A stretch of DNA of 32,000 nucleotides, taken from Methylorubrum extorquens (lineage in GTDB: Bacteria; Pseudomonadota; Alphaproteobacteria; Rhizobiales; Beijerinckiaceae). The notes under the pieces were generated by a model. It did no database searches, was not told the origin of the DNA, and worked only from the letters and a program-made list of their open reading frames with translations. Below are positions 2,204 through 27,782 of the stretch, in pieces (position 1 is the stretch's first letter; every line of letters starts with the position of its first letter). The stretch is taken from NCBI GenBank assembly GCA_900234795.1, contig LT962688.1, positions 600,001 to 632,000 on the forward strand, given 5' to 3'. A program made the position numbers and the translations under genes.

Positions 2204-3091
2204 TCACCCCCGCAGCCGCGCCACCGCCATCTTCCGCACCCGGCTCGCGTAGAACGAAAGAAACCCGCGCTGGGCGTGGTCGCCGGGGGTGCGCAGGACG
2301 AGGCCCGGATCGACAAGCATCCGCCTGCCCGTGGCGGCGGCGATGCGGCGGTTGAGAGTGAGATGCTCGCAGCGGGCGTAATCGTCGTCGAGATAGGAGC
2401 CGAGCCGGTAATCCGCGCCGCGGTAGAGCGTCAGCCCGTTGAAGGCCGAGAGGCAGGTGGTCTCGCGCTCCCGCGTCAGCGCGCTTTGTGCCGGGTAGAT
2501 CGTGTCGGAGAAGAAGCGGTAATAGCCGAGGGCGCCGCGGCGGTGGCGGGCGATGTCGTCGAGAAGGTACTCGTAGCTCACCGCCTCGTCCTCGTAGGCG
2601 AGCAGATCGTAATAGTGCGGCTGCGACGCCGCCGAGACGGCGAACAGGCCCGGCCGCTCCAGCTTGGCCAGCGCCGCGAGAACCGCCCCCGCTTCGGGCG
2701 GGCGCGCCATGACGTTGTCGATGTCGGCGACACAGACATAGGCGGGCGCCGGCCCCTGACCGTCGAGCACGCGCTTAAGATGTTCGCGGCCCCGGGCCAT
2801 CCGCGCCAGCCGGCCGCGGATGTCGGACATGAAGGCGGTGGGGACATGGCTGAGCTCGCCCCGCGCCTGCGCCGCCCAGAGCAGCGCCCCGGTGCCATCG
2901 CGGGAATCGTTCTCGCCGACGAGGGCGTGGCAATCGAGTCCCGCGTCCCTCAGGGAGGACAGGAAGCGCAGGAAGGCGGGGAGGGTGGCCGCACAATTGC
3001 GCGCCAAGGCCAGCACCACGATGTCGGGGCGCTCCGCATCGACGGGGTCTTGCAAGGAGTCTTGCACGCGGCCTTGCACCGGGTCGCTCAT
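2204..3091 (-). CDS. GT-A-fold glycosyltransferase-like protein (GT2-like signature)
   Basis: Start taken at MSDPVQGRV (ATG 3091), which overlaps the upstream stop as ATGA (3088-3091). VGENDSRDGT resembles the GT2 DDGSTDGT block. A DxD-like VADIDNV is present. No TM segments. The ORF-track N-terminal extension overlaps the upstream gene. Confidence 0.55.
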   Translation of the reverse strand: MSDPVQGRVQDSLQDPVDAERPDIVVLALARNCAATLPAFLRFLSSLRDAGLDCHALVGENDSRDGTGALLWAAQARGELSHVPTAFMSDIRGRLARMARGREHLKRVLDGQGPAPAYVCVADIDNVMARPPEAGAVLAALAKLERPGLFAVSAASQPHYYDLLAYEDEAVSYEYLLDDIARHRRGALGYYRFFSDTIYPAQSALTRERETTCLSAFNGLTLYRGADYRLGSYLDDDYARCEHLTLNRRIAAATGRRMLVDPGLVLRTPGDHAQRGFLSFYASRVRKMAVARLRG

Positions 3092-12367: not shown

Positions 12368-12422
12368 TGCCATCGCTGTTCGAGCGATGGCCTGTTCAGC
12401 ACATCCCGGAGGCTCGGCCGCG

Positions 12423-13304
12423 ATGACGACGCCCGATCACGACACCTCGCCCCCCGACACCTGGACCTTCTTCGAGGGCGCGTGGCATCCCGGCAATGTC
12501 CGGATCATGGGGCCACGCACCCACGGCGCGTGGCTCGGCTCGACGGTGTTCGACGGCGCCCGCGCCTTTGAGGGCGTCACGCCCGATCTCGATCTGCACC
12601 TCGCCCGGGTCAACCGCTCGGCCACCGCCCTCGGGCTCACGCCGAAGGTCGCGGTCGAGGAATGGGCCCGCCTCGTCGCCGAAGGGCTGACGCGCTTTGC
12701 GCCCGACGCCGAACTCTACATCCGGCCGATGTACTGGGCCGAGAGCGGGTTTGCCGGCGGCGTGCGCTTCGATCCCGCCTCCACCAACTGGTGCCTGTCG
12801 CTCTACACGGCACCGATGCCGCTGCCGTCGGGCGTCAAGGCGACGCTCTCGCCCTTCCGCCGCCCGTCGATCGAGGTCGCCCCCGTCGATGCCAAGGCCG
12901 GATGCCTTTACCCCAACGGGGCGCGGGCGCTGACAGAGGCGCTGTCGCGCGGCTTCGGCAATTGCCTGATGCTCGACGGGCTCGGCAACATCGCCGAGTT
13001 CGCCAACGCCAATGCGTTCTTCGCGCGGGACGGGGTGGTCTACACCCCGGTCCCGAACGGGACGTTCCTCGCGGGCATCACCCGCGCCCGCGTCCTCGCG
13101 CTGTTGCGCGGGGCCGGTGTCACGGTGGTGGAAAAGACCCTGCGCTACGAGGACTTCCTGAGCGCCGACGAGGTCTTCACCGCCGGCAACTTCGCCAAGG
13201 TCGCCCCGGTCACCGGGCTCGATGACATACGCTTCGAGCCGGGACCGATGTTTCGCCTCGCACGCCAGCTTTACTGGGATTTCGCGCACGGACGGCTGTC
13301 GTAG
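12423..13304 (+). CDS. Class-IV (branched-chain or D-amino-acid) aminotransferase
   Basis: 293 aa from ATG 12423 (MTTPDHD...). Blocks GAWLGSTVFDGARAF, ELYIRPMYWAE and EFANANAFFARDGVVYTP are typical of fold-type IV PLP aminotransferases. Confidence 0.8.
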   Translation: MTTPDHDTSPPDTWTFFEGAWHPGNVRIMGPRTHGAWLGSTVFDGARAFEGVTPDLDLHLARVNRSATALGLTPKVAVEEWARLVAEGLTRFAPDAELYIRPMYWAESGFAGGVRFDPASTNWCLSLYTAPMPLPSGVKATLSPFRRPSIEVAPVDAKAGCLYPNGARALTEALSRGFGNCLMLDGLGNIAEFANANAFFARDGVVYTPVPNGTFLAGITRARVLALLRGAGVTVVEKTLRYEDFLSADEVFTAGNFAKVAPVTGLDDIRFEPGPMFRLARQLYWDFAHGRLS

Positions 13305-13802: not shown

Positions 13803-15506
13803 TCAATCGCCCGCCAGCGCCTTCTCGCGGATCGCCGTGAGGCTCAGGCCCGGCGTGATCGCATCGACCGAGAACTTCACGTGGATGATCGCCGGGCGCT
13901 GCGCCGCCAGGGCCTCCTCCAACGCCGCCGGAAAATCCTCGGTCCGCTCCACGGTGAAGCCGACGCCGCCGAAGGCGCGGGCATAGGCGGCAAAGTCCGG
14001 GTTTACGAGGTCGGTGGCGAGGACGCGACCCGGAAAATCGCGCTCCTGATGCATGCGGATCGTGCCGTAGCTCGCATTGTCGGCGACGATGCAGACGATG
14101 TTCAGGCCGTACTGCACCGCGGTCGCGAATTCCTGGCCGTTCATCAGGAAGTCGCCGTCACCGTTGATTGAGATCACGGTGCGTTCGGGAAAGATCCGCT
14201 TCATCGCCACAGCCGCCGGGACGCCGTAGCCCATCGAGCCGGAGGTCGGCGCCATGTGGGTGGCAAGGCGGCGGAAGCGGTAGAAGCGGTGGATCCAAGC
14301 GGCGTAGTTGCCCGCGCCGTTGCACAGGATCGCGTCCTCCGGCAGCGCCTCGCGCAGATGCACCATCACCTGCCCGAGATTGACCGGGCCGGGCTGCGGC
14401 GTCGGGGTCTGCGACCACGCCAGATATGCGTCATGGGCCGCGCGGGTCTCGGCCGCCCACGGGACGGAAGCGGGCGCATCGAGCCGCGCCAGAGCCGCCG
14501 CCATCCGGGCCGGCGCGGCGGTGATGCCGAGATGCGGAACGTAGACCCGGCCGAGTTCCTCCGCTCCGGGATGAATATGGACGAGGCGGGTGCGGGGGGC
14601 CGGGATGTCGAGGAGCGAATAGGTCTGGCTCGCGACCTCGCCGAGGCGGCCGCCGAGCACGATCATCAGGTCGGCGGACTTGGCCCGCGCCACCAGCTTC
14701 GGGTTGGCGGCAAGCCCGAGATCGCCCGCGTAGTTCGGATGCAGCGGGTCGAACAGCGGCAGGCGGCGGTAGCTCGTGGCCACCGGCAGATCGAAGGCTT
14801 CAGCAAAGCGGCGGATATCGGCATAGGCCTGCTCGGTCCAGCGGCTGCCGCCGAGCACCAGGAAAGGGCTTTTGGCCTCCGCCAGCAGGGCGGCGAGGGA
14901 CGCGAGATCCTCCGCGCCGGGCGCGGCCTCGACGGCTTGGAAGGGCGGGGCCAGCAGCCCTTCCGCGGCATCCTTCAGCATGTCCTTCGGCAGCGCCACC
15001 ACCACCGGACCCGGCCGGCCGCCGGTGGCGGTGTGGAAGGCGCGCGAGACGTATTCCGGCATCCGCGCGCCGGTCTCGATCTCGGTGGCCCATTTCGCGA
15101 TCGGCCCGAAGGCGGCGCGGTAATCGACCTCCTGCCACGCCTCGCGGTCGCGCAGACCCCGCTCGATCTGGCCGACGAACAGGATCATCGGCGTCGAATC
15201 CTGCTGGGCGATGTGGATGCCGGCCGAGGCGTTGGTGGCGCCGGGACCGCGGGTGACGAAGCAGATGCCGGGTTGCCCCGTCGCCTTGCCGTGGGCTTCC
15301 GCCATCATCGCCGCGCCACCCTCCTGGCGGCAGACGGTGAGGGCGATGCCCGATTCGTAGAGCGCATCGAGCACCGGCAGGTAGCTCTCGCCCGGCACTG
15401 CGAAGACATGGGTGACGCCGTTGGCCGCGAGTTGGTCCACGAGCGCCTGGGCGGCGTTCCGCCCGCGGCTTCGGGCGGGGAGGGCGGCGTCTGGGCTCTG
15501 GGACAT
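13803..15506 (-). CDS. Thiamine-diphosphate-dependent enzyme of the acetolactate synthase large-subunit family (substrate unknown)
   Basis: Start at MSQSPDAALP (ATG 15506). N-terminal VTHVFAVPGESYLPVLDAL. ThDP motif GSMGYGVPAAVA...INGDGDFLMNGQE...VADNASYG. The 243-codon upstream extension in the ORF track has no family features and runs antisense into the flavin reductase gene. Confidence 0.8.
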   Translation of the reverse strand: MSQSPDAALPARSRGRNAAQALVDQLAANGVTHVFAVPGESYLPVLDALYESGIALTVCRQEGGAAMMAEAHGKATGQPGICFVTRGPGATNASAGIHIAQQDSTPMILFVGQIERGLRDREAWQEVDYRAAFGPIAKWATEIETGARMPEYVSRAFHTATGGRPGPVVVALPKDMLKDAAEGLLAPPFQAVEAAPGAEDLASLAALLAEAKSPFLVLGGSRWTEQAYADIRRFAEAFDLPVATSYRRLPLFDPLHPNYAGDLGLAANPKLVARAKSADLMIVLGGRLGEVASQTYSLLDIPAPRTRLVHIHPGAEELGRVYVPHLGITAAPARMAAALARLDAPASVPWAAETRAAHDAYLAWSQTPTPQPGPVNLGQVMVHLREALPEDAILCNGAGNYAAWIHRFYRFRRLATHMAPTSGSMGYGVPAAVAMKRIFPERTVISINGDGDFLMNGQEFATAVQYGLNIVCIVADNASYGTIRMHQERDFPGRVLATDLVNPDFAAYARAFGGVGFTVERTEDFPAALEEALAAQRPAIIHVKFSVDAITPGLSLTAIREKALAGD

Positions 15507-15803: not shown

Positions 15804-16391
15804 ATGGGGGGCGTGATGGCCGCCGCCGCGCTGGCGCCGGAGCCAGCCATCGACGGGGAGCTCCTCAAGCAGGCGATGCGCCGCCTCGTCGGCGGGGTCG
15901 TCGTGATCACCGCCGGAACCGGCGAGGACCGGGTCGGGCTCACCGCGACCTCGGCCGTCTCCCTCTCCGTCGATCCGCCGACCATGCTGGTCTGCGTCAA
16001 CCGCGCCTCCTCGACCTGGCCGGTCATCGCCCGGCGGCGGCATTTCTGCGTCAGCATCCTCGGGGCCGGGCAGCAGGCGACCGCCGAGCGCTTTGCCGGC
16101 ATCGGCGGGCTGCGGGGCGCCGCCCGCTATCGCGGCGCGGATTGGACGATCATGGAATCGGGCGCCTCCGGTCTCACCGAGGCGCAGGCCATCGTCGATT
16201 GCGCGCTGGAAGAGGTCATCGAGCGGCACAGCCACGCCATCCTCCTCGGCGCGGTGCGGGCAGTGCGTCTGAACCGGATCGAGCGGCCCTCCCTGGCCTA
16301 TGGCGGCGGGCGCTTCATCGGGATCTCACCGCATGAGGCGGCACGCGGCACCGGCCGCATTCACAGTGCCGCTGACAACAAGACAGATTAA
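15804..16391 (+). CDS. Flavin reductase (FMN-binding split-barrel, HpaC/NtaB-like)
   Basis: LVGGVVVITAGTGEDRVGLTATSAVSLSVDPPTMLVCV is the characteristic Flavin_Reduct core. The start is ATG 15804 or 15816. Confidence 0.8.
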   Translation: MGGVMAAAALAPEPAIDGELLKQAMRRLVGGVVVITAGTGEDRVGLTATSAVSLSVDPPTMLVCVNRASSTWPVIARRRHFCVSILGAGQQATAERFAGIGGLRGAARYRGADWTIMESGASGLTEAQAIVDCALEEVIERHSHAILLGAVRAVRLNRIERPSLAYGGGRFIGISPHEAARGTGRIHSAADNKTD

Positions 16392-16524: not shown

Positions 16525-16794
16525 ATGTCGCAAGCGGTGGCAGCCAGCGTCGCGGATCGCACCATGGGCCTCGCCTACGCGATCGCCGCGCGCCACACGA
16601 TCAAGCCGAAATTCGATCAAGCGGACGCCCTGGTCGATGTCGGGCTCTCGTCGCTCGATCTCGTCAACCTGATGGTCGCGGTCGAGGCGGAGTTCGACAT
16701 CATGATCCCGCCCGCGAGCCTGACGCCGAAGAACTTCTACTCGATCGAGACCATCGCCCGGATGGTCGAGAGCGTGCGCGGCCCGAACGCCTGA
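16525..16794 (+). CDS. Carrier protein 1 (phosphopantetheine-binding, ACP/PCP-like)
   Basis: 89 aa. DVGLSSLDLVNLMVAVEAEF matches the carrier-protein helix-II attachment motif, with Ser in LSSLD. Confidence 0.8.
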   Translation: MSQAVAASVADRTMGLAYAIAARHTIKPKFDQADALVDVGLSSLDLVNLMVAVEAEFDIMIPPASLTPKNFYSIETIARMVESVRGPNA

Positions 16795-16889
16795 GCGGCC
16801 AAGTCCGGATCGCCCAGACTGCGCCGCCCCTCACGAACATCCCTGACGTGCCGCCGGCCCGGCCGGCTTCAGTCCAACGGAGCCCAGCC

Positions 16890-18092
16890 ATGACGATGCA
16901 GCCCACGACCCGGCCGGACGGTTACGTCGGCGATGCCGCCGACCTTTTGACCCGCGCGGCGGCCGCCGCCGCGATCGCCGCCACCCATGCGGACGCGGTG
17001 GACCGCGACGGGCGCTTCCCCGAGGAAGCCGTCGCCGCCTTCCGCTCGCAGCGCCTGCTCGGTGCGGCCGTGCCGATCGAACTCGGCGGGGAGGGCGCCT
17101 CGGTCCGGATGCTGGCCGAAATCTGCTACGTGCTGGGCCGCGCCTGCGCCTCCTCGGCGATGATCTTCGCCATGCACCAGACCAAGGTGGCCTGCCTGAT
17201 CCGGCATGGCCGCGGCGAGCCCTGGCAGGACGGCCTCTTGCGCCGCATCGCCGGCGAACAGCTCCTGATGGCGTCCTCGACGACCGAGGGCCAGGGCGGC
17301 GGCAATGTCCGCTCCTCCTCCGCGGCGATCGAGGCCGACGGCGATGCAGTCACCCTGGAGCGGGCCGCGACCGTAATTTCCTACGGCGCCCAGGCCGACG
17401 GCGTCGTCACCGTCGCCCGCCGCTCGGCCGAGGCCGGCCCCTCCGACCAAGTGCTCTGCGTCTTCCTGCGTGAGGACTACACCCTGGAGCGCCTGAGCGG
17501 CTGGGAAACGCTCGGCATGCGCGGCACCTGCAGCAGCGGCTTCCGACTCGTCGCCCGCGGCCGCCCCGAGCAGGTGCTCGCCGCCCGCTACAGCGACCTC
17601 CACAACCGGACCATGACGCCGGTCTCGCACATCCTCTGGTCGAGCGCCTGGACCGGCATCGCCGCCTCCGCCGTCGATCGCGCCCAGGCCTTCACCCGCA
17701 CGGCGATGCGCGGCGCGGGCGGCGTCGCCCCGCCCGGCGCGCTGCACTACGCGCGCGCCGTCTCCAGCCTGAAGCAGGCCCGCGCCCTCGTCACGCAGGC
17801 GCTCGACACCTTCGAGGGAGCCGAGGGCGACCCGGCGGCTTTGGCCGGCCTCGACGTGCAGACCGCGCTGACGATGCTGAAGGTCGAAGTCTCCGAACTC
17901 GCCGTCGCCACCGTGTCGAGCGCGCTGCGCGCCAATGGGCTCGCCGGCTACCGCCAGGACGGCGCGTTCAGCATCGGCCGGGCGCTGCGCGACATCCTCT
18001 CGGCACCGATCATGATCCACAACGACCGGATCCTGGCCAACCTCGCCACCGCGACGCTGATGTCGCCGGTCGCCGCCTCGCTCAGCGCCTGA
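16890..18092 (+). CDS. Acyl-CoA dehydrogenase-fold flavoenzyme lacking the MCAD-type catalytic Glu
   Basis: ATG 16890 is preceded by GGAG. The ~400-aa ACAD architecture includes ASSTTEGQGGGNVRSS, which is like the (S/T)E..GSD segment. The C-terminal RALRDILSAPIMIHNDRILANLA aligns to R-D-x(6)-I-Y-E-G-T, with E replaced by I/H. Confidence 0.75.
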   Translation: MTMQPTTRPDGYVGDAADLLTRAAAAAAIAATHADAVDRDGRFPEEAVAAFRSQRLLGAAVPIELGGEGASVRMLAEICYVLGRACASSAMIFAMHQTKVACLIRHGRGEPWQDGLLRRIAGEQLLMASSTTEGQGGGNVRSSSAAIEADGDAVTLERAATVISYGAQADGVVTVARRSAEAGPSDQVLCVFLREDYTLERLSGWETLGMRGTCSSGFRLVARGRPEQVLAARYSDLHNRTMTPVSHILWSSAWTGIAASAVDRAQAFTRTAMRGAGGVAPPGALHYARAVSSLKQARALVTQALDTFEGAEGDPAALAGLDVQTALTMLKVEVSELAVATVSSALRANGLAGYRQDGAFSIGRALRDILSAPIMIHNDRILANLATATLMSPVAASLSA

Positions 18093-18123
18093 AGGCGCTC
18101 GGCGACGTTCGTTCCTGCCTCGA

Positions 18124-18223
18124 ACGCCGGCGGTCGCCTCCGCGACCTTGGCTCTCGCTACGCTCGACGCCTCGGCTTGGCCGAGGCCCGCTCCGCGGGG
18201 CGCTCTTCGCGCCCGACAGGCGG
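18124..18223 (+). repeat. Intergenic structured repeat, copy B (inside the carrier-protein cassette)
   Basis: Same conserved flanks as 12258-12367. The central hairpin here is gcctcggc-ttg-gccgaggc (18169-18187), which differs in sequence from copy A but sits in the same position. Confidence 0.8.
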
Positions 18224-18265
18224 AGCACAGGCTCCACTGCCCCCTTTGCCGAAGGACTGCCCGCC

Positions 18266-19198
18266 ATGAACATGTCCGTGATGAACGCGCCGGCCTCGCC
18301 GACCGCGACCGACCCGCTCGACGCCCTGTTCGATGCGATGTTCAAGCCGATGAACGCGCAGGGCGTCTACGCCCGCACCGGCGCCTACGAGTCGGTGGTG
18401 GAGGCGCTGGCCGCCTTCATCTCGGCGCGGCGCGAGGCCGAGACGGAGGTGTTCCGCTTCCCGCCGGTGATGAGCCGGGCGCATCTGGAGCGGCACGGCT
18501 ACCTCAAGAGCTTCCCGAACCTCCTCGGCTGCGTCTCCTGCCTGGAAGGCACCGAGACGGAGATCCGCGCCTCGGCCGACAAGCATCTGGAGGGCGGCGA
18601 CTGGACCGCGGACCTCGAGACCGCCGACCTCGTGCTGACCCCGGCTGCCTGCTACCCGGTCTACCCGATCGCCGCCGCCCGCGGAGCGGTGCCGGCCACC
18701 GGCTACTGCTTCGATGTCGCCTGCGACTGCTTCCGCCGTGAGCCCTCGCGCCATCTCGACCGGCTGCAATCCTTCCGGATGCGCGAATACGTCCGCATCG
18801 GCACGCCGGAGCAGATCGTCGCCTTCCGCGAGAGCTGGATCGAGACCGCCACCGCGATGGCCGACGAACTCGGGCTGCCCTACACGGTCGAGACCGCGAG
18901 CGACCCGTTCTTCGGCCGGCTCGGCCAGATCATGGCCTTCAGCCAGCTCGAACAGGCCTTGAAGTTCGAGCTGCTGATCCCGCTCCGGGGGGCGGCCGCC
19001 GGCACCGCCTGCATGAGCTTCAACTATCACCGCGAGCATTTCGGCACGACCTGGGGCCTCAACCTGGAGGATGGCGAGCCCGCCCATACCGGTTGCGTCG
19101 CCTTCGGCATGGACCGCCTCGCGGTGGCCCTGTTCGCCACCCACGGCGAGCGCATCGACGCGTGGCCGGCCCCGGTCCGCGCGGCGCTGAAGCTCTGA
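18266..19198 (+). CDS. Amino acid--[acyl-carrier-protein] ligase. This is a truncated class-II, SerRS-like aaRS catalytic core without a tRNA-binding domain.
   Basis: 310 aa. Blocks FPPVMSRAHLERHGYLKSFPNLLGCV and TPAACYPVYP. Motif-2-like DCFRREPSRHLDRLQSFRMREY. ASDPFFGR and CMSFNYHREHFGTTWG. Motif-3-like HTGCVAFGMDRLAVALF. There is no N-terminal coiled-coil or anticodon domain. Confidence 0.85.
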   Translation: MNMSVMNAPASPTATDPLDALFDAMFKPMNAQGVYARTGAYESVVEALAAFISARREAETEVFRFPPVMSRAHLERHGYLKSFPNLLGCVSCLEGTETEIRASADKHLEGGDWTADLETADLVLTPAACYPVYPIAAARGAVPATGYCFDVACDCFRREPSRHLDRLQSFRMREYVRIGTPEQIVAFRESWIETATAMADELGLPYTVETASDPFFGRLGQIMAFSQLEQALKFELLIPLRGAAAGTACMSFNYHREHFGTTWGLNLEDGEPAHTGCVAFGMDRLAVALFATHGERIDAWPAPVRAALKL

Positions 19199-19215: not shown

Positions 19216-20133
19216 ATGCCGCTCGATCCGCATGTCAGCCGCTTCCTCGACATGATGGCGCTCGGAAGCTCGGACGGCATCACCCTCGACGCCCGCCGGG
19301 AGGGGATGCGCGGGCTCGCGCGCCTCGCCGGGCTGACCGCCGAGGGCGTCGCGACCCGTGACCTCGTCCTGCCGGGCCCGGCCGGGCCGATTTCCGCGCG
19401 GCTCTACGCGCCCGAGGGCAGCGCGAGCGGCCCCGGCCTCGTCTACCTGCATGGCGGCGGCCTCGTGACCGGCGGCCTCGACACCCATGACGGACTCTGC
19501 CGGGTGCTGGCCGAGGCCGGCGCCCTGCGCATCGTCTCGGTCGATTACCGGCTCGCGCCCGAACACCCGTTCCCGGCCGCCCTCGACGACGCGCTGGCGG
19601 CGATGGACGGGGTCGCCGCGCAGGCGGACACGCTCGGGATCGATCCGGCCCGGCTCGGGATCGGCGGCGATTCCGCCGGGGCCGGGCTCGCGGCACGGGT
19701 CTGCCAGGAACGGCGCGGCGGCCCGATCCGGGCGCAGCTCCTGATCTGCCCCGTGCTCGACGTCCACGGCAGCTACCCCTCGCGCCGCGATTTCGCTCAA
19801 GGATACTTCCTCGACGAGGCGACGATCCGGCGCGACCTTGCGGCCTGCGGCCCCGAGGCCGCCGGCCCGTCGCCCCGTCTCTCGCCCCTGCGCGAGGCGG
19901 ATCTTACCGGCCTGCCCCCGGCCCGCATCCACACGGCGGAGTACGATCCCGTCCGCGACGAGGGGGCGGCCTATGCCGCGCGTCTGGAGCGGGCGGGCGT
20001 CGAGACCGCCCACACCGTTCACGCCGGCATGATCCACTTCTTCTACGGCCTCGGGCGGCTGGTGCCGCGCGGCCGGCCGATCCTGTCCGAGATCGCCCGC
20101 GACTTCGGCGCCTGCCTCCGCGGCGCCTCCTAA
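19216..20133 (+). CDS. Alpha/beta-hydrolase, hormone-sensitive-lipase family (family IV esterase)
   Basis: Oxyanion motif YLHGGGLVTGG, nucleophile elbow GGDSAGAGL, then DPVRDEG and HAGMIHFF for Asp/His. ATG 19216 lies 17 nt after the ligase stop. Confidence 0.8.
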   Translation: MPLDPHVSRFLDMMALGSSDGITLDARREGMRGLARLAGLTAEGVATRDLVLPGPAGPISARLYAPEGSASGPGLVYLHGGGLVTGGLDTHDGLCRVLAEAGALRIVSVDYRLAPEHPFPAALDDALAAMDGVAAQADTLGIDPARLGIGGDSAGAGLAARVCQERRGGPIRAQLLICPVLDVHGSYPSRRDFAQGYFLDEATIRRDLAACGPEAAGPSPRLSPLREADLTGLPPARIHTAEYDPVRDEGAAYAARLERAGVETAHTVHAGMIHFFYGLGRLVPRGRPILSEIARDFGACLRGAS

Positions 20134-20183
20134 CCCCACCCCTTGTCCACCCCTTGCCCAACCCAGCCTTGAGGAGAGCCACC

Positions 20184-20441
20184 ATGTCCCTGCGTGAGAC
20201 CGTCTTCGCCGAGATCGCCGCCATCGCCGCCGAGCAGGAAAAGGCGATGCCGCCGATCACCGACGACCTCGTGATGCTCGACACCGAGTTCGACTCGCTC
20301 TGCTTCGCGCTCCTCGTCGCGCGGATGGAGGATCTCACCGGCGCCGACCCGTTCGGCGAGATGGATGCCTCCGACCTGCCGGTGACGGTCGGCGACCTCG
20401 TCGCCCTCTACGACCGCGCCGCGGCCCGGCAGGCGGCCTGA
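20184..20441 (+). CDS. Carrier protein 2 (ACP/PCP-like)
   Basis: 85 aa from ATG 20184, with RBS GAGGAG upstream. LDTEFDSLCFALLVARME contains the DSL phosphopantetheine attachment motif. Confidence 0.8.
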   Translation: MSLRETVFAEIAAIAAEQEKAMPPITDDLVMLDTEFDSLCFALLVARMEDLTGADPFGEMDASDLPVTVGDLVALYDRAAARQAA

Positions 20442-20446
20442 CCCCG

Positions 20447-21808
20447 ATGATCCTGCGCGAGAGGCTTCTGGCGGCGGGCGGACTCGAGGGCCTGTTCCTG
20501 TCCGACCACCGCAGCAAACAAGATCTCGCCGGGATCGTCTCCGGCGAGCGCGACGCCGCCGCGACCGCGGCGCTCGCCGGCCGCCGGGTGCTGCTCGCGG
20601 TCGGCGGGCAGATGGCGGCGGCCCGCGCCATGATCGCGCTCGACGGCCTCGCGGCCCGGCTCGCCCTCGTCCCCCCGAAGCTCGCGCCGGAGCACATCGC
20701 CCGGATCGCATTGGATTCCGAGGCGGAGATCTGCGTCACCGATGCCGAGGGGCTGCCCCCCGACGCGCTGCCGGGCCTGCCCCGGATCGACGCGGCCGAC
20801 GCGTTCCGCGCGGGCTCCGAGACAGTGCGGGAGACGGAATGGGCACTGGCCACCTCCGGCACCACCGGCGCGCCGAAGCTCGTCGCCCACACCCTCGAAG
20901 GCCTCGCCGGCGGCATCAACACCGCCGCGGCGCCGGAGCCCGGCACGGTGTGGAGCACCTTCTACGACATCCGCCGCTACGGCGGGCTCCAAGTATTCCT
21001 GCGGGCGATGCTCGGGCCGTCCTCGCTCGTGCTCTCCGACGCGGGCGAGCCGGTGCGCGACTATCTCATCCGCGTCGGCGCGGCGGGCGTCACCCACATC
21101 CTCGGCACGCCCTCGCACTGGCGCCTCGCCCTGATGAGCGCGGCGCTCGACCGGCTGAGCCCCCGCTACGTGCGGCTCTCGGGCGAGATCGCCGACCAGA
21201 ACATCCTCGACGCCCTGCGCGACGCCTTCCCTGACGCGCGCATCGCCCACGCCTACGCCTCGACCGAGGGCGGGGTCGGCTTCACCGTCGAGGACGGGCA
21301 GGAGGGTTTCCCGGCCGCGCTGATCGGCACCCGCGCCGGGATCGAGATCACCGTGCGCGAGGACAGCCTGTTCGTGCGCTCCGGCCGCACCGGGCGTCGC
21401 TATCTCGGCGCGGCGCCCGAGGCGCTGATCGCCGCGGACGGCTTCATCGACACCGGCGACCTCGTGGAGCGACGGGGCGAGCGCTACCACTTCCTCGGCC
21501 GGCGCAGCGGCGTGATCAATGTCGGCGGCGCCAAGGTGCAGCCGGAGGAGGTCGAGACCGTCATCAACGTCTTCCCCGGCGTCTCGATGTCCCGCGTGCG
21601 CGCCCGGCCCAACCCGATCCTCGGCGCGGTGGTCGAGGCGGAGGTGGTGTTGCGCGCCGATGCGGGCACGGATCAGGCGGTGCTGAAGAAAGCGATCATC
21701 GCCCACTGCCGCCCGCGCCTGGCCGGACACAAGGTGCCGGCGAGCGTGAAATTCGTGGATGCGCTGCCGATCACGTCGGGCGGCAAGCTGGTGCGGAGGG
21801 GCGCGTGA
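20447..21808 (+). CDS. Adenylate-forming acyl/aryl ligase (ANL superfamily). Likely loads carrier protein 2.
   Basis: Motifs ATSGTTGAPKLVAHT, YASTEGG, GDLVERRGERYHFLGRRSGVINVGGAKV and PITSGGKLVRR. Starts 5 nt after the carrier protein 2 stop. Confidence 0.8.
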   Translation: MILRERLLAAGGLEGLFLSDHRSKQDLAGIVSGERDAAATAALAGRRVLLAVGGQMAAARAMIALDGLAARLALVPPKLAPEHIARIALDSEAEICVTDAEGLPPDALPGLPRIDAADAFRAGSETVRETEWALATSGTTGAPKLVAHTLEGLAGGINTAAAPEPGTVWSTFYDIRRYGGLQVFLRAMLGPSSLVLSDAGEPVRDYLIRVGAAGVTHILGTPSHWRLALMSAALDRLSPRYVRLSGEIADQNILDALRDAFPDARIAHAYASTEGGVGFTVEDGQEGFPAALIGTRAGIEITVREDSLFVRSGRTGRRYLGAAPEALIAADGFIDTGDLVERRGERYHFLGRRSGVINVGGAKVQPEEVETVINVFPGVSMSRVRARPNPILGAVVEAEVVLRADAGTDQAVLKKAIIAHCRPRLAGHKVPASVKFVDALPITSGGKLVRRGA

Positions 21809-22548
21809 GCGACGATCTCGAGACCGGACGCCTCGTCGTCGTCACGGGCGCGAGCCGCGGGCTCGGCCTCGCCATGGCCGAAACCCTTGCCGCCGACGGG
21901 TTTCGCGTGGTGGCGCTCGCCCGGCGACCGAGCGAGGCGCTGGAGGCGGCGCAAGTGGCTGCTCCCGGCCGGATCGCTTTCATGGCCGCGGATCTCGGCG
22001 AGATCGACGCGCTCCAGGCTCTCGCCCAGAGAATCCGGGCCGAGCACGGGCCGGTCTACGGCCTCGTCAACAACGCTGCGCTCGGCACGCCCGGCCTGCT
22101 CACGACGATGCCGGCAAGCAAGATCGCCGAACTCGTCCACCTCAACACCCTCGCGCCGATGGTGCTGACCAAGTATCTCGCCCGCGGGATGATGACGGCC
22201 GGCGCCGGCCGCATCGTCAATGTTAGCTCGATCATCGCCTTCACCGGCTACAACGCCCTGTCGGTCTACGCCGCGACCAAGGCCTCGATGATCGGCTTCA
22301 CCAAGTCGCTCGCCCGCGAGGTCGGGCGGCTGGGGGTAACGGTGAACGCGGTGGCGCCCGGCTTCATCGAGACGGCGATGACCGGCGAGATGGACGAGGC
22401 GGAGCGCGGGCGCGTGGCCAACCGCAGCGCCCTCAAGCGGCTGGCCGAGCCGCAGGACGTGGCCGACGCCGTCGCCTACCTGATGTCGGACCGCGCCCGT
22501 AACGTCACCGGCACCGTTCTGACCATCGACGCCGGCAGCACCGCCTGA
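21805..22548 (+). CDS. Short-chain dehydrogenase/reductase (FabG-like)
   Basis: Motifs VVVTGASRGLGLA, NNAA and YAATKAS. The GTG start overlaps the ligase stop as GTGA, and GGAGGGG lies upstream. Confidence 0.85.
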   Translation: MSDDLETGRLVVVTGASRGLGLAMAETLAADGFRVVALARRPSEALEAAQVAAPGRIAFMAADLGEIDALQALAQRIRAEHGPVYGLVNNAALGTPGLLTTMPASKIAELVHLNTLAPMVLTKYLARGMMTAGAGRIVNVSSIIAFTGYNALSVYAATKASMIGFTKSLAREVGRLGVTVNAVAPGFIETAMTGEMDEAERGRVANRSALKRLAEPQDVADAVAYLMSDRARNVTGTVLTIDAGSTA

Positions 22549-22720: not shown

Positions 22721-22823
22721 GTCTCCGAGCGGGACGAGAGCGCGCCTTGCTCACGGTTCGATCGCGCGGAGCCGTGGAACGAAATGGGTGCCGGACAGCG
22801 CGACGAGCCGGAGGGGGCCGCCG

Positions 22824-23768
22824 ATGATTGGGGTGAGCGAGACCGTGGAAGACGTCCCACCCGCGGGGGAGGGCGTCCGCAGCGCGCGGGTCAAGGTCCG
22901 CTGCCGCACCATCGAGGAGGATGACCTCGCCTCCGTGGTACGGCTGTTACAGGTCGGCTTCCCCGATCGCTCCGAACCCTATTGGCGGACCGGGCTCGAC
23001 CGGCACCGCACCCAGCCGCTGCCCGACGACGTGCCGCGCTACGGCTATGTGCTGGAACGGGACGGGGCCATTGTCGGCGTCCTGCTCGCACTCTACCGCA
23101 TGGTGACGGACGAGGCCGGCACGCATCTGCGCTGCAACCTTTCGAGCTGGTACGTTCTGCCGGAATTCCGCGCGCTGGGCACCCTGCTCGACGGCTTCGC
23201 CATGCGCGACCGGCGGGTGACCTACACCAACGTCTCGCCCGCTCCGCAGACGTGGCAGATTCATAAAGCGCGCGGCTTCAAGCCGGTCTGCTCGGGCCAG
23301 ATGCTCGTCATGCCGCTGCTCGCCGACCTCGGCCGGGGGCGCCGCGTCCGCGTGGCCACGCCGGAGACCCTACGCCTGCTGCCGGAGCCGGAGGCCCGGC
23401 TGGTGGCCGACCACCTCGCCTATGGCTGCATCGGCCTCGTCTGTTCGGATGGGGAGAAGGCGTGGGCCGTCCTGTTCCAGCGGCGCGCCATCAAGCTGCG
23501 GCCGGGGGAAACCCGGTGGCCGCGCCTGCCCTGCCTTCAGCTCGTCTACCGCTCGACCGCGCTCGACCTGTCCGCCTTCCTCGGCGCGATCGGCCGGCAT
23601 CTCATGCTGCACCACGCCATGCCGTGGTTCGTGCTCGATGCCGTGGGCAAGCTGCCGGGCTTTGCCGGACACTTCTTCGAGGGCCGCGCCCCGAAATACG
23701 CCCGCGGCCCGAACCCGCCGGCCACCGGAGACCTCACCTATACCGAGGTCGTCCTGTTCGGTGCCTAA
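22824..23768 (+). CDS. GNAT-fold acyltransferase-like protein with a C-terminal second lobe (314 aa)
   Basis: ATG 22824 is preceded by GGAGGGGG. The N-terminal lobe reads IEEDDLASVVRLLQVGF...YGYVLERDGAIVGVLLALY...SSWYVLPEFRALG, which looks like GNAT beta4-alpha3. The C-terminal ~150 aa has no motif I can name. Confidence 0.55.
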   Translation: MIGVSETVEDVPPAGEGVRSARVKVRCRTIEEDDLASVVRLLQVGFPDRSEPYWRTGLDRHRTQPLPDDVPRYGYVLERDGAIVGVLLALYRMVTDEAGTHLRCNLSSWYVLPEFRALGTLLDGFAMRDRRVTYTNVSPAPQTWQIHKARGFKPVCSGQMLVMPLLADLGRGRRVRVATPETLRLLPEPEARLVADHLAYGCIGLVCSDGEKAWAVLFQRRAIKLRPGETRWPRLPCLQLVYRSTALDLSAFLGAIGRHLMLHHAMPWFVLDAVGKLPGFAGHFFEGRAPKYARGPNPPATGDLTYTEVVLFGA

Positions 23769-24109: not shown

Positions 24110-25480
24110 ATGCTGAACTTCCTCTTGGTCGTCGCGGTGGCGGTCTGGTTCGTGCTGCTCTACCCGCTGGCGCGCCACCGACTCGAGACCCGGATGGGGC
24201 CGCTGAACGGTCCGCTGGCGGTCCCGTTCGCCCTGACGACGATCTTCGCGCTGCTGCCGCTGGTCTTCAACGTCCCGCGGGATGACGGCAACGCCGTGCT
24301 GGAGCAGGGGCTGACGGCCTCCAACCTCGCGCTCATCGTCATGACCGGGCTGACCGGGCTCTATCTCATCGCCCGGATCGCGGTGGACCGGCGCGTCCTG
24401 CTGGTGGCGTTCTCGATGCCGTACCTGCCGTTCACGCTGATGATCCTCGTGAACGGCCTCAGCACCGCGTGGTCGATCGTGCCGAGCTACACCGTCTATC
24501 GGACCGTGGAGCTTGCGATCTTCACGCTCACCTCAATCCTGATCTTCGACCGCAGCGATATCGAGCGGCGGCTGGCCAACCTCTTCGCGCTGTTCACCGT
24601 CGCGTGGCTGGTCGCCACGACACCGATCATCCTCGACAATCTGGCGCATGGGGTCGTGTTCTCGTCGGCCAAGCACAACCTGATGCCATATCTCTGCGCC
24701 GCGCACGCCTTCCTCGTCATCTTCGACGACCGCATCCCGCACCGGCGCGCCCATCTCCTGCTTGCCTTCGTCGGCTTCGTCATCGCGGGCTCGGCCGCGA
24801 GCACCGCCTCGCTCATCGCGGCAGCCCCCGGCCTGATGGTGGCGTCACGCCACCGCCGCCTACGCCTCCTCGGCTACACGGCCTTCACCGTCTACCTGAT
24901 CGTGTTCGTGGTGCTGATGGTCGGCCTGTCGGCCTTCCCCGCCCTGCTCGACGTGGTCTCGGTCGTGCTGCAGAAGCCCCCGGAAGAGCTGGCCGACGCC
25001 ACCGGGCGCGGCACCTTCTGGCCGGTCTTCATCGAGGCGACCAAGGACCGCTTCGTCGGCGCCGGCTACGCGGCGGGAGACCGCTTCATCCAGCTCCTCA
25101 TTCCCACCACGGCTTTGGCGGAGACGCTGGCACGCGACGCCGTGTTCATCTCCAGCTCGCACAACATGGTGCTGAGCGCCTGGGCCGGCACCGGCCTGAT
25201 CGGGCTCGGCCTCTGCGCGATGGTGCTGGGGACCGCCCTGCGCTGGGGGATGAAGCTCGACCGTCCCGGACGCCGCCTCGTCGCTACCTGCGTGTTCTTC
25301 CTGATCCTCAACGGCATGACGACGCCGGGCATCTTTCAGGACTGGAACATCAACGTCCTCACCTTCGTGGGTCTGTTGGCCTATGCCCGCATCGGCGCCC
25401 TACGTCGCGCGCCGGTGGGCGCGGCCACCCCCGTTCCGGCGGCCACCGCCTTCGGTCTCCCGGTTGCGGCGTCCGCGTGA
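24110..25480 (+). CDS. Wzy/O-antigen-ligase-like polysaccharide polymerase (second copy in the window)
   Basis: 456 aa and polytopic. Wzy_C-like region GSAASTASLIAA...GRGTFWPVFIEATKDRFVGAGYAAG...SSSHNMVLSAWAGTGLIGL. Confidence 0.7.
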   Translation: MLNFLLVVAVAVWFVLLYPLARHRLETRMGPLNGPLAVPFALTTIFALLPLVFNVPRDDGNAVLEQGLTASNLALIVMTGLTGLYLIARIAVDRRVLLVAFSMPYLPFTLMILVNGLSTAWSIVPSYTVYRTVELAIFTLTSILIFDRSDIERRLANLFALFTVAWLVATTPIILDNLAHGVVFSSAKHNLMPYLCAAHAFLVIFDDRIPHRRAHLLLAFVGFVIAGSAASTASLIAAAPGLMVASRHRRLRLLGYTAFTVYLIVFVVLMVGLSAFPALLDVVSVVLQKPPEELADATGRGTFWPVFIEATKDRFVGAGYAAGDRFIQLLIPTTALAETLARDAVFISSSHNMVLSAWAGTGLIGLGLCAMVLGTALRWGMKLDRPGRRLVATCVFFLILNGMTTPGIFQDWNINVLTFVGLLAYARIGALRRAPVGAATPVPAATAFGLPVAASA

Positions 25481-25658
25481 TGCGCATCCTGGCGCACATC
25501 TTGAAGTGTGAGACCCAAACGACCTTCGGCCCGCGGCCGCTGTCCCGAAACGAGAAGGATCGTCCCCGGACGACCCACTCGGGGACGGAAATGGCGGACC
25601 GGATCGGTTGCTGCGGGCTGACGAGGCCCGCAGGCGCGTATTGTTCGAGAGTTTCGCG

Positions 25659-27782
25659 ATGACGATGATCGAGCGGATGCCTTCGCGGTTCTTCGTCGGC
25701 GCCGAGCCGGGCAAGCCGGACGTGACGCCTGAACCCTGGTTCCTCGAACCGCGTGAGATCGGACGGGCCCTGCGCGCGCGCTGGGCGCTCGTGCTGGCCC
25801 CGGCTGTGCTCCTCTTGGTGGCGGCGGTGGCGTGGCTCGCGCTGGTGCCGCCGCTCTACGCCGCCGTGACGCAGATCCTGATCGACCCGCGCGGCATCCA
25901 AGTGGTCAAGGACGGCGTGACGCCCTCGGATCAGGCGAGCGATGCGAGCCTGTTCCTCGTCGACAGCCAGATCCGGGTCCTCATCTCCGACGAAGTGCTG
26001 CGGCAGGTCGTGACTCGGTTCAAGCTCGATCAAGACCCGGACTTCGTTCGTCCCGCCTCGCTGCTCGAGACGCTCAAGAGCCGCCTCTCCTCGCTGATCG
26101 TCACCGCCGGCGGCCCTGCCGATGACACGCTCACCGCCCTGCGCACGCTGCGCGATCGCACCACCGCGCGCCGCCTGGAGCGCAGCTTCGTGGTCGAGCT
26201 CGCCGTCTCCAGCGAGGAGCGCCGGAAATCCGCCGAGCTCGCCCAGGCCATCGCCGAAACCTACCTCACCACCGTCTCGCAGGCGCAGGCGCAGGTCACC
26301 CGCAAGGCCGGCGAGGCGGTGTCGAGCCGCCTCGGCGAGTTGCAGGACGACCTCCGGCAGGCCGAGGACAAGGCGCAGAAGTTCCGCGCCGCCAACAACC
26401 TCGTCGGCACCCGCGGCCAGCTCGTCAGCGAGCAGGCGCTGACCCAGCTCAACCAGCAGCTCGGCGCGGCGCGTGCCCGGGCCGGCGAACTGCGCGGGCG
26501 GCTCGCCCAGATCGAAGCGGTCGCCAACGGGCGGGCCGACCTCAACTCGGTGACCGAAATCGTCCAGTCCACGACGGTCGCGCAATTGCGCGCCCAGCTC
26601 GCCCAGATCGAGGCGGCCCGGGCCGACACCCTGTCCAACCTCGGCCCCCGTCACCCCACCCTGCGCACCGGCGAGCTGCAGGTGCAGACCCTGCGCAACG
26701 ACATCAACGCCGAGATCCGCCGCATCGCCGCGGCCACGCGCAACGACTACCGGTCGGCCTTGTCCAACGAGGCCTCGCTCGCCGCCACCCTGGAGAGCCG
26801 CAAGAAGGAGGCTCTGTCCGTCGACAAGAGCTTCGTGCGCCTGCGCGAACTGGAGCGGCAGGTCGAAGCGAGCCGCGCGGTCTACGAGGCCTTCCTCGTC
26901 CGCGCCCGCGAGCTTCAGGAGCAGCAGCGCCTCGACACCTCGACCTCGCGCGTCATCTCGCCCGCCTCGCTGCCGGAGCGCCGGCTCGGGCCGCCGATCC
27001 CGGCCATCTTCGCCGCGGCGCTGGCGGCCGGGCTCGGCCTCGGCACCGCGCTCGCCCTCCTCGCCGTGCCGGCCGCGGGGCGGATCGGTTCGCGCCGCCG
27101 GTTTCAGCAGCTCGCGGGGCTCCCCGTGGTCGCCGCCCTGCCGGCCAAGGTGCCGACCCGGACGCGAAGCAAGGCAGGCAGCGAATCCCTGCGCGCCGAC
27201 ACCGCCTACGACGTGGCCGTGGCCCGTCTCGGCAGCCGTCTGCAGCGCGACTTCGGCGCCACGCGGCCGACGGTGGTCCTCGTTACCTCGGCGGACGACC
27301 GGAGCGGCAAGTCGGAGCTGGCGCGCAGCCTCGCCGCCTCGGCCGCGCTCGACGGCCAGCGGGTGCTGCTCGTCGATGCCGACCCGGAGGCGATGATCTC
27401 GCGCGATCTCCGGAGCCAGGCCAAGCGCGGCGCCGCCGAGGTGCTGCGGACGCATTCGGGGCTTAGCGACGCGCTGGTCGAGGGGCCGACCGGGGTCAAG
27501 ATCCTGCCCTTCGACGACGCGGCTCTGCGCCTCGGCACCGCGGCCTATACCGGCGCGATCCTGACGGCGGCGGCCGCTTTCGACACGGTCTTCGTCGATA
27601 TCGGTCTGATCGGCACCGACATCGCCGCCGAGCGTCTCGCCCAGGACCAGCGCTTCCCGGCCCTGCTGCTGACGGCCAGCGCCGCCCGCAGCGGCACCGC
27701 CCGGCTGCGGCGGGCGCTCGACGCCCTCGGCCGCGACCCGCGGGTGCAGCTCGTCATGACCGACGCCGAGGCCGAGGGGTGA
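25659..27782 (+). CDS. GumC/ExoP-like polysaccharide co-polymerase (Wzz domain, coiled coil, degenerate BY-kinase-like P-loop domain)
   Basis: ATG 25659. TM1 plus PLYAAVTQILIDPRG, then a long periplasmic coiled coil. TM2 is PPIPAIFAAALAAGLGLGTALALLAV. C-terminal VVLVTSADDRSGKSELA...VLLVDADPE...VFVDIG. No terminal Tyr cluster. Confidence 0.75.
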   Translation: MTMIERMPSRFFVGAEPGKPDVTPEPWFLEPREIGRALRARWALVLAPAVLLLVAAVAWLALVPPLYAAVTQILIDPRGIQVVKDGVTPSDQASDASLFLVDSQIRVLISDEVLRQVVTRFKLDQDPDFVRPASLLETLKSRLSSLIVTAGGPADDTLTALRTLRDRTTARRLERSFVVELAVSSEERRKSAELAQAIAETYLTTVSQAQAQVTRKAGEAVSSRLGELQDDLRQAEDKAQKFRAANNLVGTRGQLVSEQALTQLNQQLGAARARAGELRGRLAQIEAVANGRADLNSVTEIVQSTTVAQLRAQLAQIEAARADTLSNLGPRHPTLRTGELQVQTLRNDINAEIRRIAAATRNDYRSALSNEASLAATLESRKKEALSVDKSFVRLRELERQVEASRAVYEAFLVRARELQEQQRLDTSTSRVISPASLPERRLGPPIPAIFAAALAAGLGLGTALALLAVPAAGRIGSRRRFQQLAGLPVVAALPAKVPTRTRSKAGSESLRADTAYDVAVARLGSRLQRDFGATRPTVVLVTSADDRSGKSELARSLAASAALDGQRVLLVDADPEAMISRDLRSQAKRGAAEVLRTHSGLSDALVEGPTGVKILPFDDAALRLGTAAYTGAILTAAAAFDTVFVDIGLIGTDIAAERLAQDQRFPALLLTASAARSGTARLRRALDALGRDPRVQLVMTDAEAEG

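Follow-up and report, generated by a model that had tools for sequence, protein, structure and literature searches.

What does the catalytic core of a class II aminoacyl-tRNA synthetase (aaRS) do when it stands alone, and on which amino acid and which acceptor does it act? This question is raised by an open reading frame of Methylorubrum extorquens that lies at 18266..19198 on the + strand of the stretch of DNA analyzed here (positions 600,001 to 632,000 of contig LT962688.1, assembly GCA_900234795.1; hereafter the window, 32,000 nucleotides long, G+C ~70%). The frame encodes a protein of 310 residues and has two carrier-protein genes in its vicinity, one upstream (CP1) and one downstream (CP2). 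We conclude that the protein is very probably an amino acid:[carrier protein] ligase (hereafter aa:CP ligase) of the Bll0957 type that would load an amino acid, probably glycine, onto CP1 without the involvement of tRNA. This reading draws on the homology, conserved residues, fold and gene linkage found here, and on the catalysis, zinc dependence and lack of tRNA charging published for the orthologue, which the window protein would be expected to share.

The enzyme type is already known: the family has been crystallized and biochemically characterized, was described in 2010-2013, and the protein is correctly named in RefSeq. Its members are dimers that depend on zinc and no longer have the tRNA-binding domain or the ability to charge tRNA (PMC9437257). 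They load Gly or Ala onto the phosphopantetheine (Ppant) arm of a carrier protein encoded nearby and do not aminoacylate tRNA (PMC9437257, PMC5370406).

Family, fold and putative zinc site of the ligase

The ligase gene and the parts of it that bear on its active site are the following.

18266..19198, + strand: predicted amino acid:[carrier protein] ligase (probably glycine-type); 310 aa, made up of the class II aaRS catalytic core alone
18650..18652, + strand: Cys129 codon, first putative zinc ligand, in PAACYP; aligned with the Cys of Bll0957 and of Methanopyrus kandleri seryl-tRNA synthetase (SerRS)
18728..18790, + strand: class II motif 2, CFRREPS...FRMREY, residues 155-175; includes R157, E159 and E174
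18785-18787, + strand: Glu174 codon, second putative zinc ligand, in FRMREY; aligned with the Glu of Bll0957 and SerRS
19091..19135, + strand: class II motif 3, GCVAFGMDRLAVALF, residues 276-290; includes C277, A279 and R284
19094-19096, + strand: Cys277 codon, third putative zinc ligand, in TGCVAF; aligned with the Cys of Bll0957 and SerRS
19100-19102, + strand: Ala279 codon, within motif 3

In the open reading frame listing the gene starts at the first ATG past an in-frame stop, and its reading frame is intact. A phmmer search of the PDB with the protein returns the structures of Bll0957 at the top (E 8.1e-135, query residues 2-308; entries 3MEY, 3MF1, 3MF2, 3PZC and 4H2S-4H2V, labeled 'Amino acid--[acyl-carrier-protein] ligase 1'), and BLASTP aligns it with Bradyrhizobium japonicum Bll0957 at 66% identity over 309 aa with 2 gaps. 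Likewise, the NCBIfam equivalog NF005479, 'amino acid--[acyl-carrier-protein] ligase', matches residues 4-309 of 310 with 474 bits against a cut-off of 357. By these alignments the window protein is evidently a full-length orthologue of Bll0957, glycine:[carrier protein] ligase 1. A Methylorubrum protein that is 99% identical to it already carries the aa:CP ligase name in public annotation (RefSeq). Methylorubrum sp. SL192 has the same gene order, and its proteins share 99% identity with those of the window.

Outside the family, the nearest sequence match in the PDB is M. kandleri SerRS (3W3S, E 1e-17), in which SerRS residues 307-506 are aligned with residues 117-305 of the ligase. The SerRS equivalogs NF002120 and TIGR00415 reach 70.9 bits (cut-off 611) and 57.4 bits (cut-off 489.6), respectively, and are matched in their C-terminal catalytic part only, at model positions ~307-503. 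The AlphaFold2 (AF2) model of the ligase, which has a mean predicted local distance difference test score (pLDDT) of 75 with low values at residues 84-94 and 213-226, gives the same order of kinship in Foldseek: the Bll0957 structures come first, followed by the class II cores of SerRS, ThrRS and ProRS. Over the whole chain the model superposes on Bll0957 (4H2S, 3MF1, 3MEY) with template modeling (TM) scores of 0.82-0.87 under either normalization, and on the Methanosarcina barkeri and M. kandleri SerRS with TM scores of ~0.70 when normalized to the query and ~0.45 when normalized to SerRS, compared with 0.86 for Bll0957. Only ~45% of the SerRS chains is covered by the model. Neither an N-terminal tRNA-binding arm nor an anticodon-binding domain was found in the 310-aa ligase with Pfam, with the SerRS models or by structure superposition. 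Since the SerRS match is confined to the catalytic half, the ligase is without a tRNA-binding module. These observations support its description as a class II aaRS catalytic core that stands alone and belongs to the lineage of methanogen-type SerRS, from which it descends by truncation, with nothing but the class II core retained.

Methanogen-type SerRS recognizes its amino acid by means of an active-site zinc, held by Cys and Glu residues together with a water that the substrate displaces (PMC7373986). In HMMER alignments C129, E174 and C277 of the window ligase fall opposite Cys, Glu and Cys in both Bll0957 and M. kandleri SerRS, with the paired contexts PAACYPVY/PAQCEPFY, FRMREYV/FQRIEHV and TGCVAFG/TGCAGLG for ligase and SerRS. 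Conservation was assessed in an orthologue set of 81 sequences (the window ligase and 80 from genomes) and in a distant set of 95 full-length family representatives with 31-53% identity to the window ligase. All three triad residues are invariant in 81/81 orthologues, as are the motif residues R157, E159, A279, G281 and R284, among 101 invariant positions. In the distant set the first Cys is present in 94 sequences, the Glu in 94 and the second Cys in 87, and the representatives without a full triad have garbled C-termini resembling frameshifts or fragments. The blocks that surround the active site are all identical between the window ligase and Bll0957 (PAACYPVYPIAA, CFRREPS, LDRLQSFRMREYV, ASDPFFGR, TACMSFNYHREHFGTTWG and GEPAHTGCVAFGMDRLAVA). 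The alignments support the view that the Cys/Glu/Cys zinc site of the aa:CP ligase type is kept in the window ligase as a putative metal site.

We take the zinc ligands of the solved structures to be C131, E176 and C279 in Bll0957 and C306, E355 and C461 in M. barkeri SerRS. The numbering offset is consistent with the alignment, in that a 20-residue tag and a 2-residue insertion put C129 at native position 131. A literature text search for 'Cys131/Glu176/Cys279' returned nothing relevant.

The initial annotation of this gene, made from the window's letters, had anticipated much of this. Translation reproduces its numbering of C129, E174 and C277 and their contexts PAACYP, RMREY and TGCVAF, and the motif 2-like and motif 3-like sequences that it described in the 310-aa frame lie at residues 155-175 and 276-290. 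Its view of the protein as a catalytic core without a tRNA-binding module agrees with the sequence models and the AF2 superposition, in which similarity to SerRS covers the catalytic half only. The putative zinc triad that it likened to those of methanogen-type SerRS and aa:CP ligases matches Bll0957 and M. kandleri SerRS at each of its three residues in the alignments, and its aa:CP ligase reading is borne out by the NF005479 and Bll0957 matches given above.

The family is large, with more than 7,600 homologues of the ligase in 90% clusters and 268 clusters at 50% clustering (E <= 1e-30). Pfam detects in the window protein only a sub-threshold class II core (PF00587, tRNA-synt_2b, 27.0 bits against a gathering score of 29.3, residues 152-290). 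In JGI annotation many homologues are named 'seryl-tRNA synthetase'; the NCBI name is correct. The sub-threshold Pfam score and the JGI labels together imply that domain-based pipelines miss or misname the aa:CP ligase family, and they call for caution where annotation relies on Pfam alone or on pipelines that carry the SerRS label.

The carrier-protein partner and the amino acid

The two carrier proteins of the window, and the segment of the ligase that is predicted to recognize its partner, are listed here.

16525..16794, + strand: CP1, aminoacyl carrier protein and predicted ligase substrate, two genes upstream of the ligase; PP-binding Pfam match
16651-16653, + strand: CP1 phosphopantetheine site, Ser43, in GLSSLD; invariant in 81 sequences
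18914..18958, + strand: predicted carrier-protein recognition helix of the ligase, GRLGQIMAFSQLEQA, residues 217-231; the segment swapped in 4H2W
20154-20441, probable start 20184, + strand: CP2, a divergent polyketide synthase (PKS)-type acyl carrier protein (ACP), two genes downstream of the ligase
20295-20297, + strand: CP2 Ser codon of a DSL motif that is invariant in the profile of 15 orthologues

By far the best PDB match of CP1 is chain C of 4H2S, 'Aminoacyl carrier protein 1' (E 2.6e-16, 46% identity), which is Bsr0959 co-crystallized with Bll0957. A CP1 homologue is linked to the ligase in 79/80 of the genome loci that were fetched around ligase orthologues and that underlie all linkage counts given here. 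CP2 presents a different picture. As a single sequence it has no Pfam or NCBIfam family match. A profile built from 15 orthologues matches ACPs (MacpD, E 1e-8, and fungal PKS ACP domains) and, at E <= 0.1, leaves the aminoacyl carrier protein undetected; nor can any similarity be detected between CP2 and either CP1 or Bsr0959. Its homologues are present in 26/80 loci and missing from 54/80, always within a fixed block of CP2, an AMP-binding ligase (AMP-ligase) and a short-chain dehydrogenase/reductase (SDR). The homology of CP1 to Bsr0959 and its linkage in 79/80 loci, together with the placement of CP2 in a separate block, indicate with good confidence that the partner of the ligase is CP1. 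CP2 would then belong to a separate module, with the adenylate-forming enzyme encoded 6 nt downstream as its predicted loader.

The predicted recognition helix is identified from the structures of the orthologue: wild-type Bll0957 (3MEY) and the engineered ligase crystallized with a foreign carrier protein (4H2W) are distinguished by a single segment, VGQMKAVSQKQQQ in the former and AGKMLANNQRDQQ in the latter. The corresponding segment of the window ligase forms a helix at residues 218-229 in the AF2 model (pLDDT ~50), and its surface positions vary among orthologues. Relative to Bll0957, 8/15 positions of the helix differ and two lysines are lost (K to M and K to L). On the other side of the predicted interface, CP1 is without three glutamates that are present in Bsr0959, and at one of these sites, CP1 position 69, the Glu is replaced by a lysine. 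Across loci, loss of ligase K223/K228 tends to accompany loss of acidic residues in CP1, such as E69. This charge co-variation between ligase and CP1 is suggestive only, as phylogeny confounds it, with 33 identical Bradyrhizobium pairs.

The amino acid is probably glycine, by orthology. The PDB titles for Bll0957 read 'glycine:[carrier protein] ligase complexed with cognate carrier protein', 3MF1 contains a glycyl adenylate analogue, and the window locus shares synteny with that of bll0957 in B. diazoefficiens. The window ligase (A279), Bll0957 and all 81 orthologues have Ala at the position +2 from the third zinc ligand; in the distant set (n=95) this position is dimorphic, with Gly in 51 and Ala in 38. 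A Bll0957 A281G mutant reportedly has widened specificity. Of the other family members, Atu2573 is Gly-specific and the paralogue Bll6282 Ala-specific. The initial annotation had described the gene geometry correctly, with CP1 two genes upstream and CP2 two genes downstream, and had held that neither the partner carrier protein nor the amino-acid specificity could be told. On both counts it was too cautious, as homology to Bsr0959 and linkage in 79/80 loci single out CP1 and orthology to Bll0957 points to glycine.

By homology with Bll0957, for which these steps are published, the reaction may be pictured as follows. The amino acid, most probably glycine, would bind with its alpha-amino group on the zinc held by Cys129, Glu174 and Cys277. 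ATP, gripped by R157 of motif 2 and R284 of motif 3, would react with it to give the aminoacyl-adenylate. The Ppant thiol on Ser43 of holo-CP1, docked at the predicted helix 217-231, would then attack the adenylate to give aminoacyl-S-CP1 and AMP, with no part played by tRNA.

Other explanations of the gene were weighed against the same data. The substrate of a ligase acting on CP1 could be alanine or another small amino acid, and some evidence points that way: both Gly- and Ala-specific enzymes belong to the family (PMC5370406), the Gly 51/Ala 38 split at the +2 position of the distant set suggests subfamilies with different pockets, and identity to the Gly enzyme is 66%, not 100%. We nevertheless consider a non-glycine substrate unlikely, given that Ala279 is shared with Bll0957 and with all 81 syntenic orthologues, that the blocks surrounding the triad are identical to those of the enzyme crystallized with a glycyl-adenylate analogue, and that the locus is syntenic with bll0957. 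It is quite improbable that the ligase charges CP2, or both carrier proteins, and not CP1 alone. CP2 does lie two genes downstream in the same co-directional gene string, and its DSL phosphopantetheinylation motif is invariant; yet it is missing from 54/80 ligase loci and is otherwise always immediately upstream of its own adenylate-forming enzyme, it resembles neither CP1 nor Bsr0959, and its profile misses the aminoacyl carrier protein at E <= 0.1, whereas CP1 is present in 79/80 loci and is homologous to the co-crystallized partner.

The scores of 70.9 and 57.4 bits, so far below the SerRS equivalog cut-offs of 611 and 489.6, the restriction of the match to SerRS residues ~307-506 with the whole N-terminal tRNA-binding domain missing, and the published failure of the characterized orthologue to aminoacylate tRNA (PMC9437257, PMC5370406) make it very improbable that the protein is a minimal genuine SerRS or a SerRS-derived enzyme still using tRNA, even though methanogen-type SerRS are the nearest relatives outside the family and many homologues bear this label in JGI data. 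Equally hard to credit is the idea that the protein is a paralogue that has decayed, lost its catalytic activity and survives in a structural or regulatory role. A Pfam match to the class II core that falls short of the gathering score would fit such decay, but the 101 positions invariant in 81 orthologues include the triad and both motif arginines, the reading frame is intact, and the orthologue bll0957 is expressed and regulated at the transcript and protein level (PMC10888616).

Reading the protein as a ligase that loads glycine onto CP1 thus remains the preferred explanation, and several points weigh against it. Catalysis by the window ligase is assigned from its orthologue, and the AF2 model is of moderate confidence (mean pLDDT 75). 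The choice of glycine rests on orthology and on the conservation of Ala279, which corresponds to Ala281 of Bll0957. The predicted carrier-protein-binding helix has diverged from that of Bll0957, and docking details may differ. An Ala-specific member exists in the aa:CP ligase family (PMC5370406). Finally, the CP1 gene (~300 bp) is inverted: in the window, as in Methylorubrum sp. SL192, it runs in the same direction as the ACAD-like (acyl-CoA dehydrogenase-like) gene and the ligase gene, and in 78/80 other genomes it is found on the other strand, in divergent orientation to the ACAD-like gene. This is a lineage-specific inversion, and no convincing inverted repeats were found flanking the inverted gene.

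The conserved gene cassette and its surroundings

The other genes of the neighborhood are as follows.

3088-5451, - strand: Wzy_C protein fused to a right-handed beta-helix domain; polysaccharide gene flanking the cluster
12420-13304, + strand: class IV aminotransferase; near the ligase cassette in 23/80 loci
13803-15500, - strand: acetolactate-synthase-like thiamine diphosphate (ThDP) enzyme; near the ligase cassette in 19/80 loci
15804..16391, + strand: flavin reductase (Pfam Flavin_Reduct, E 6e-32), upstream of the cassette
16848..18092, probable start 16890, + strand: ACAD-fold flavoenzyme (Acyl-CoA_dh N, M and C Pfam domains)
19216..20133, + strand: alpha/beta hydrolase (Abhydrolase_3, hormone-sensitive-lipase type; Pfam E 3e-61)
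20447..21808, + strand: AMP-binding (adenylate-forming) enzyme, predicted CP2 loader (Pfam AMP-binding and AMP-binding_C)
21805..22548, + strand: SDR, a FabG-like ketoreductase (Pfam adh_short, E 2e-50)
22788-23768, probable start 22824, + strand: predicted tandem-GNAT acyltransferase, 314 aa; AF2 pLDDT 91.6
24110-25480 and 25608-27782, + strand: polysaccharide genes flanking the cluster, a second Wzy_C protein and a Wzz/GNVR chain-length determinant with a tyrosine-kinase-like ATPase domain

The ACAD-like gene is linked to the ligase gene in 80/80 loci. When phaR is mutated in B. diazoefficiens, the two orthologous genes, bll0957 and bll0958 (acd), are upregulated together (PMC10888616). The ACAD-like protein resembles short-chain acyl-CoA dehydrogenases and, more weakly, prolyl-carrier-protein dehydrogenases and ACAD-fold monooxygenases or N-oxygenases (SfnB, DszC, nitrososynthase). 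At the site of the canonical YEGT catalytic Glu (residues 388-393) all 81/81 orthologues have I-(N/H/S)-N-(D/E), and the flavoenzyme may be an oxygenase rather than a dehydrogenase. Its predicted substrate is the aminoacyl-S-CP1 thioester, so that the amino acid would be modified while tethered. The flavin reductase gene is linked in 3/80 loci only, and occupies the same position in Methylorubrum sp. SL192; in this lineage alone, its product may act as a partner to the ACAD-fold enzyme.

The tandem-GNAT gene is linked to the ligase gene in 65/80 loci and lies directly downstream of it in Bradyrhizobium. Its product belongs to no Pfam or NCBIfam family, with only a weak GNAT match (E 0.079), and a sequence search of the PDB found nothing. 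Foldseek relates its model to the double-GNAT folds of Eis and N-myristoyltransferase (E ~1e-9, TM 0.5-0.59). A FemX-like aminoacyl-transferase fold was considered and set aside, being outranked in Foldseek by the tandem GNATs of the Eis and N-myristoyltransferase type. The protein is predicted to consume the carrier-protein thioester, either by transferring the acyl group from it or by acylating its amine.

Between the ligase and GNAT genes the window lineage carries insertions encoding the alpha/beta hydrolase (esterase), the second ACP, the AMP-ligase and the SDR. The hydrolase, which matches NCBIfam LipP1 with 275 bits, under the cut-off, is linked in 31/80 loci and is a possible releasing esterase or thioesterase. 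The AMP-ligase is linked in 27/80 loci and the SDR, which NCBIfam 3-oxoacyl-ACP reductase models match below their cut-offs, in 28/80, and the order CP2, AMP-ligase, SDR is fixed. The block as a whole occurs in differing orientations relative to the ligase cassette. The aminotransferase and the ThDP enzyme recur in varying arrangements, which suggests that they are part of the same extended pathway.

The spacer between the ACAD-like and ligase genes (18093-18265) is 173 nt long, compared with 140 nt in Methylorubrum sp. SL192 and 7-98 nt in 40 other loci. It is GC-rich and contains a perfect hairpin, GCCTCGGCTTGGCCGAGGC; its folding is no better than that of shuffled sequence (z = -1.4). Rfam gave no match to a glycine riboswitch or any other RNA family in the whole window, no sigma-70-like promoters were found, and terminator-like sites are no commoner than expected by chance.

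The biological role of aa:CP ligases was described as unknown in a 2022 review (PMC9437257), and a literature search for later work on it returned only reviews calling the role unknown. The linkage counts (ACAD-like 80/80, carrier protein 79/80, tandem-GNAT 65/80) name the partners with which this role could be tested. A tentative and, taken as a whole, rather doubtful proposal is that the family's role is underlain by a four-gene unit of carrier protein, ACAD-fold flavoenzyme without the canonical Glu, ligase and tandem-GNAT protein. In such a unit the flavoenzyme might oxidize or N-oxygenate glycyl-S-CP1 on the carrier, and the N-myristoyltransferase/Eis-like GNAT might N-acylate the tethered product or move it to an amine acceptor. 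The presence of the second module (ACP, adenylase, ketoreductase and esterase) and of the adjoining Wzy/Wzz genes raises the possibility that the product is an acyl group derived from glycine that decorates an exopolysaccharide, or else a lipid of the N-acyl-glycine kind. The enzyme itself adds nothing new, and the locus is of modest interest for its conserved, unexplained cassette.

Comparison with known systems

The closest known system is that of Bll0957. The two ligases are collinear over their full length and of similar length class (310 aa versus ~326), with the same class II motifs, the same triad and Ala at the +2 position, and the Bll0957 neighborhood likewise has carrier-protein, ACAD-like and tandem-GNAT genes. 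The loci differ in that the carrier-protein gene is co-directional in the window and divergent in Bradyrhizobium, and in that the window has the esterase, second ACP, AMP-ligase and SDR genes between the ligase and GNAT genes and a flavin reductase gene upstream.

More distantly, the ligase has in common with the methanogen-type SerRS (M. barkeri, 2CIM and 2CJ9; M. kandleri, 3W3S) its catalytic-core fold, the positions of the Cys/Glu/Cys residues and motifs 2 and 3. Some 190 residues can be aligned, at 14-23% identity, and the N-terminal tRNA-binding domain of SerRS is missing in the ligase. Ala279 of the ligase corresponds to a Gly in SerRS, and the acceptor differs: SerRS charges the 3' end of tRNA, whereas the ligase would charge a protein-bound pantetheine thiol.

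Pairs of a stand-alone adenylation enzyme and a peptidyl carrier protein (PCP) of the nonribosomal peptide synthetase type, such as the prolyl-S-PCP systems PltF/PltL/PltE and Bmp1/Bmp3, follow the same logic as that proposed here, in which an amino acid is adenylated at the expense of ATP, held as a thioester on a free-standing carrier and acted on in this tethered state by an ACAD-fold flavoenzyme. Consistent with this likeness, the next-best PDB matches of CP1 are PltL and the Bmp1 carrier domain. Since the amino acid tethered by the window ligase is probably glycine, a pyrrole-type oxidation as in the prolyl-S-PCP systems would be impossible. The activating enzymes also differ, the window ligase having the class II aaRS fold and the nonribosomal pairs the ANL (AMP-binding) fold, and the resemblance between the two kinds of system is thus one of analogy, not homology.

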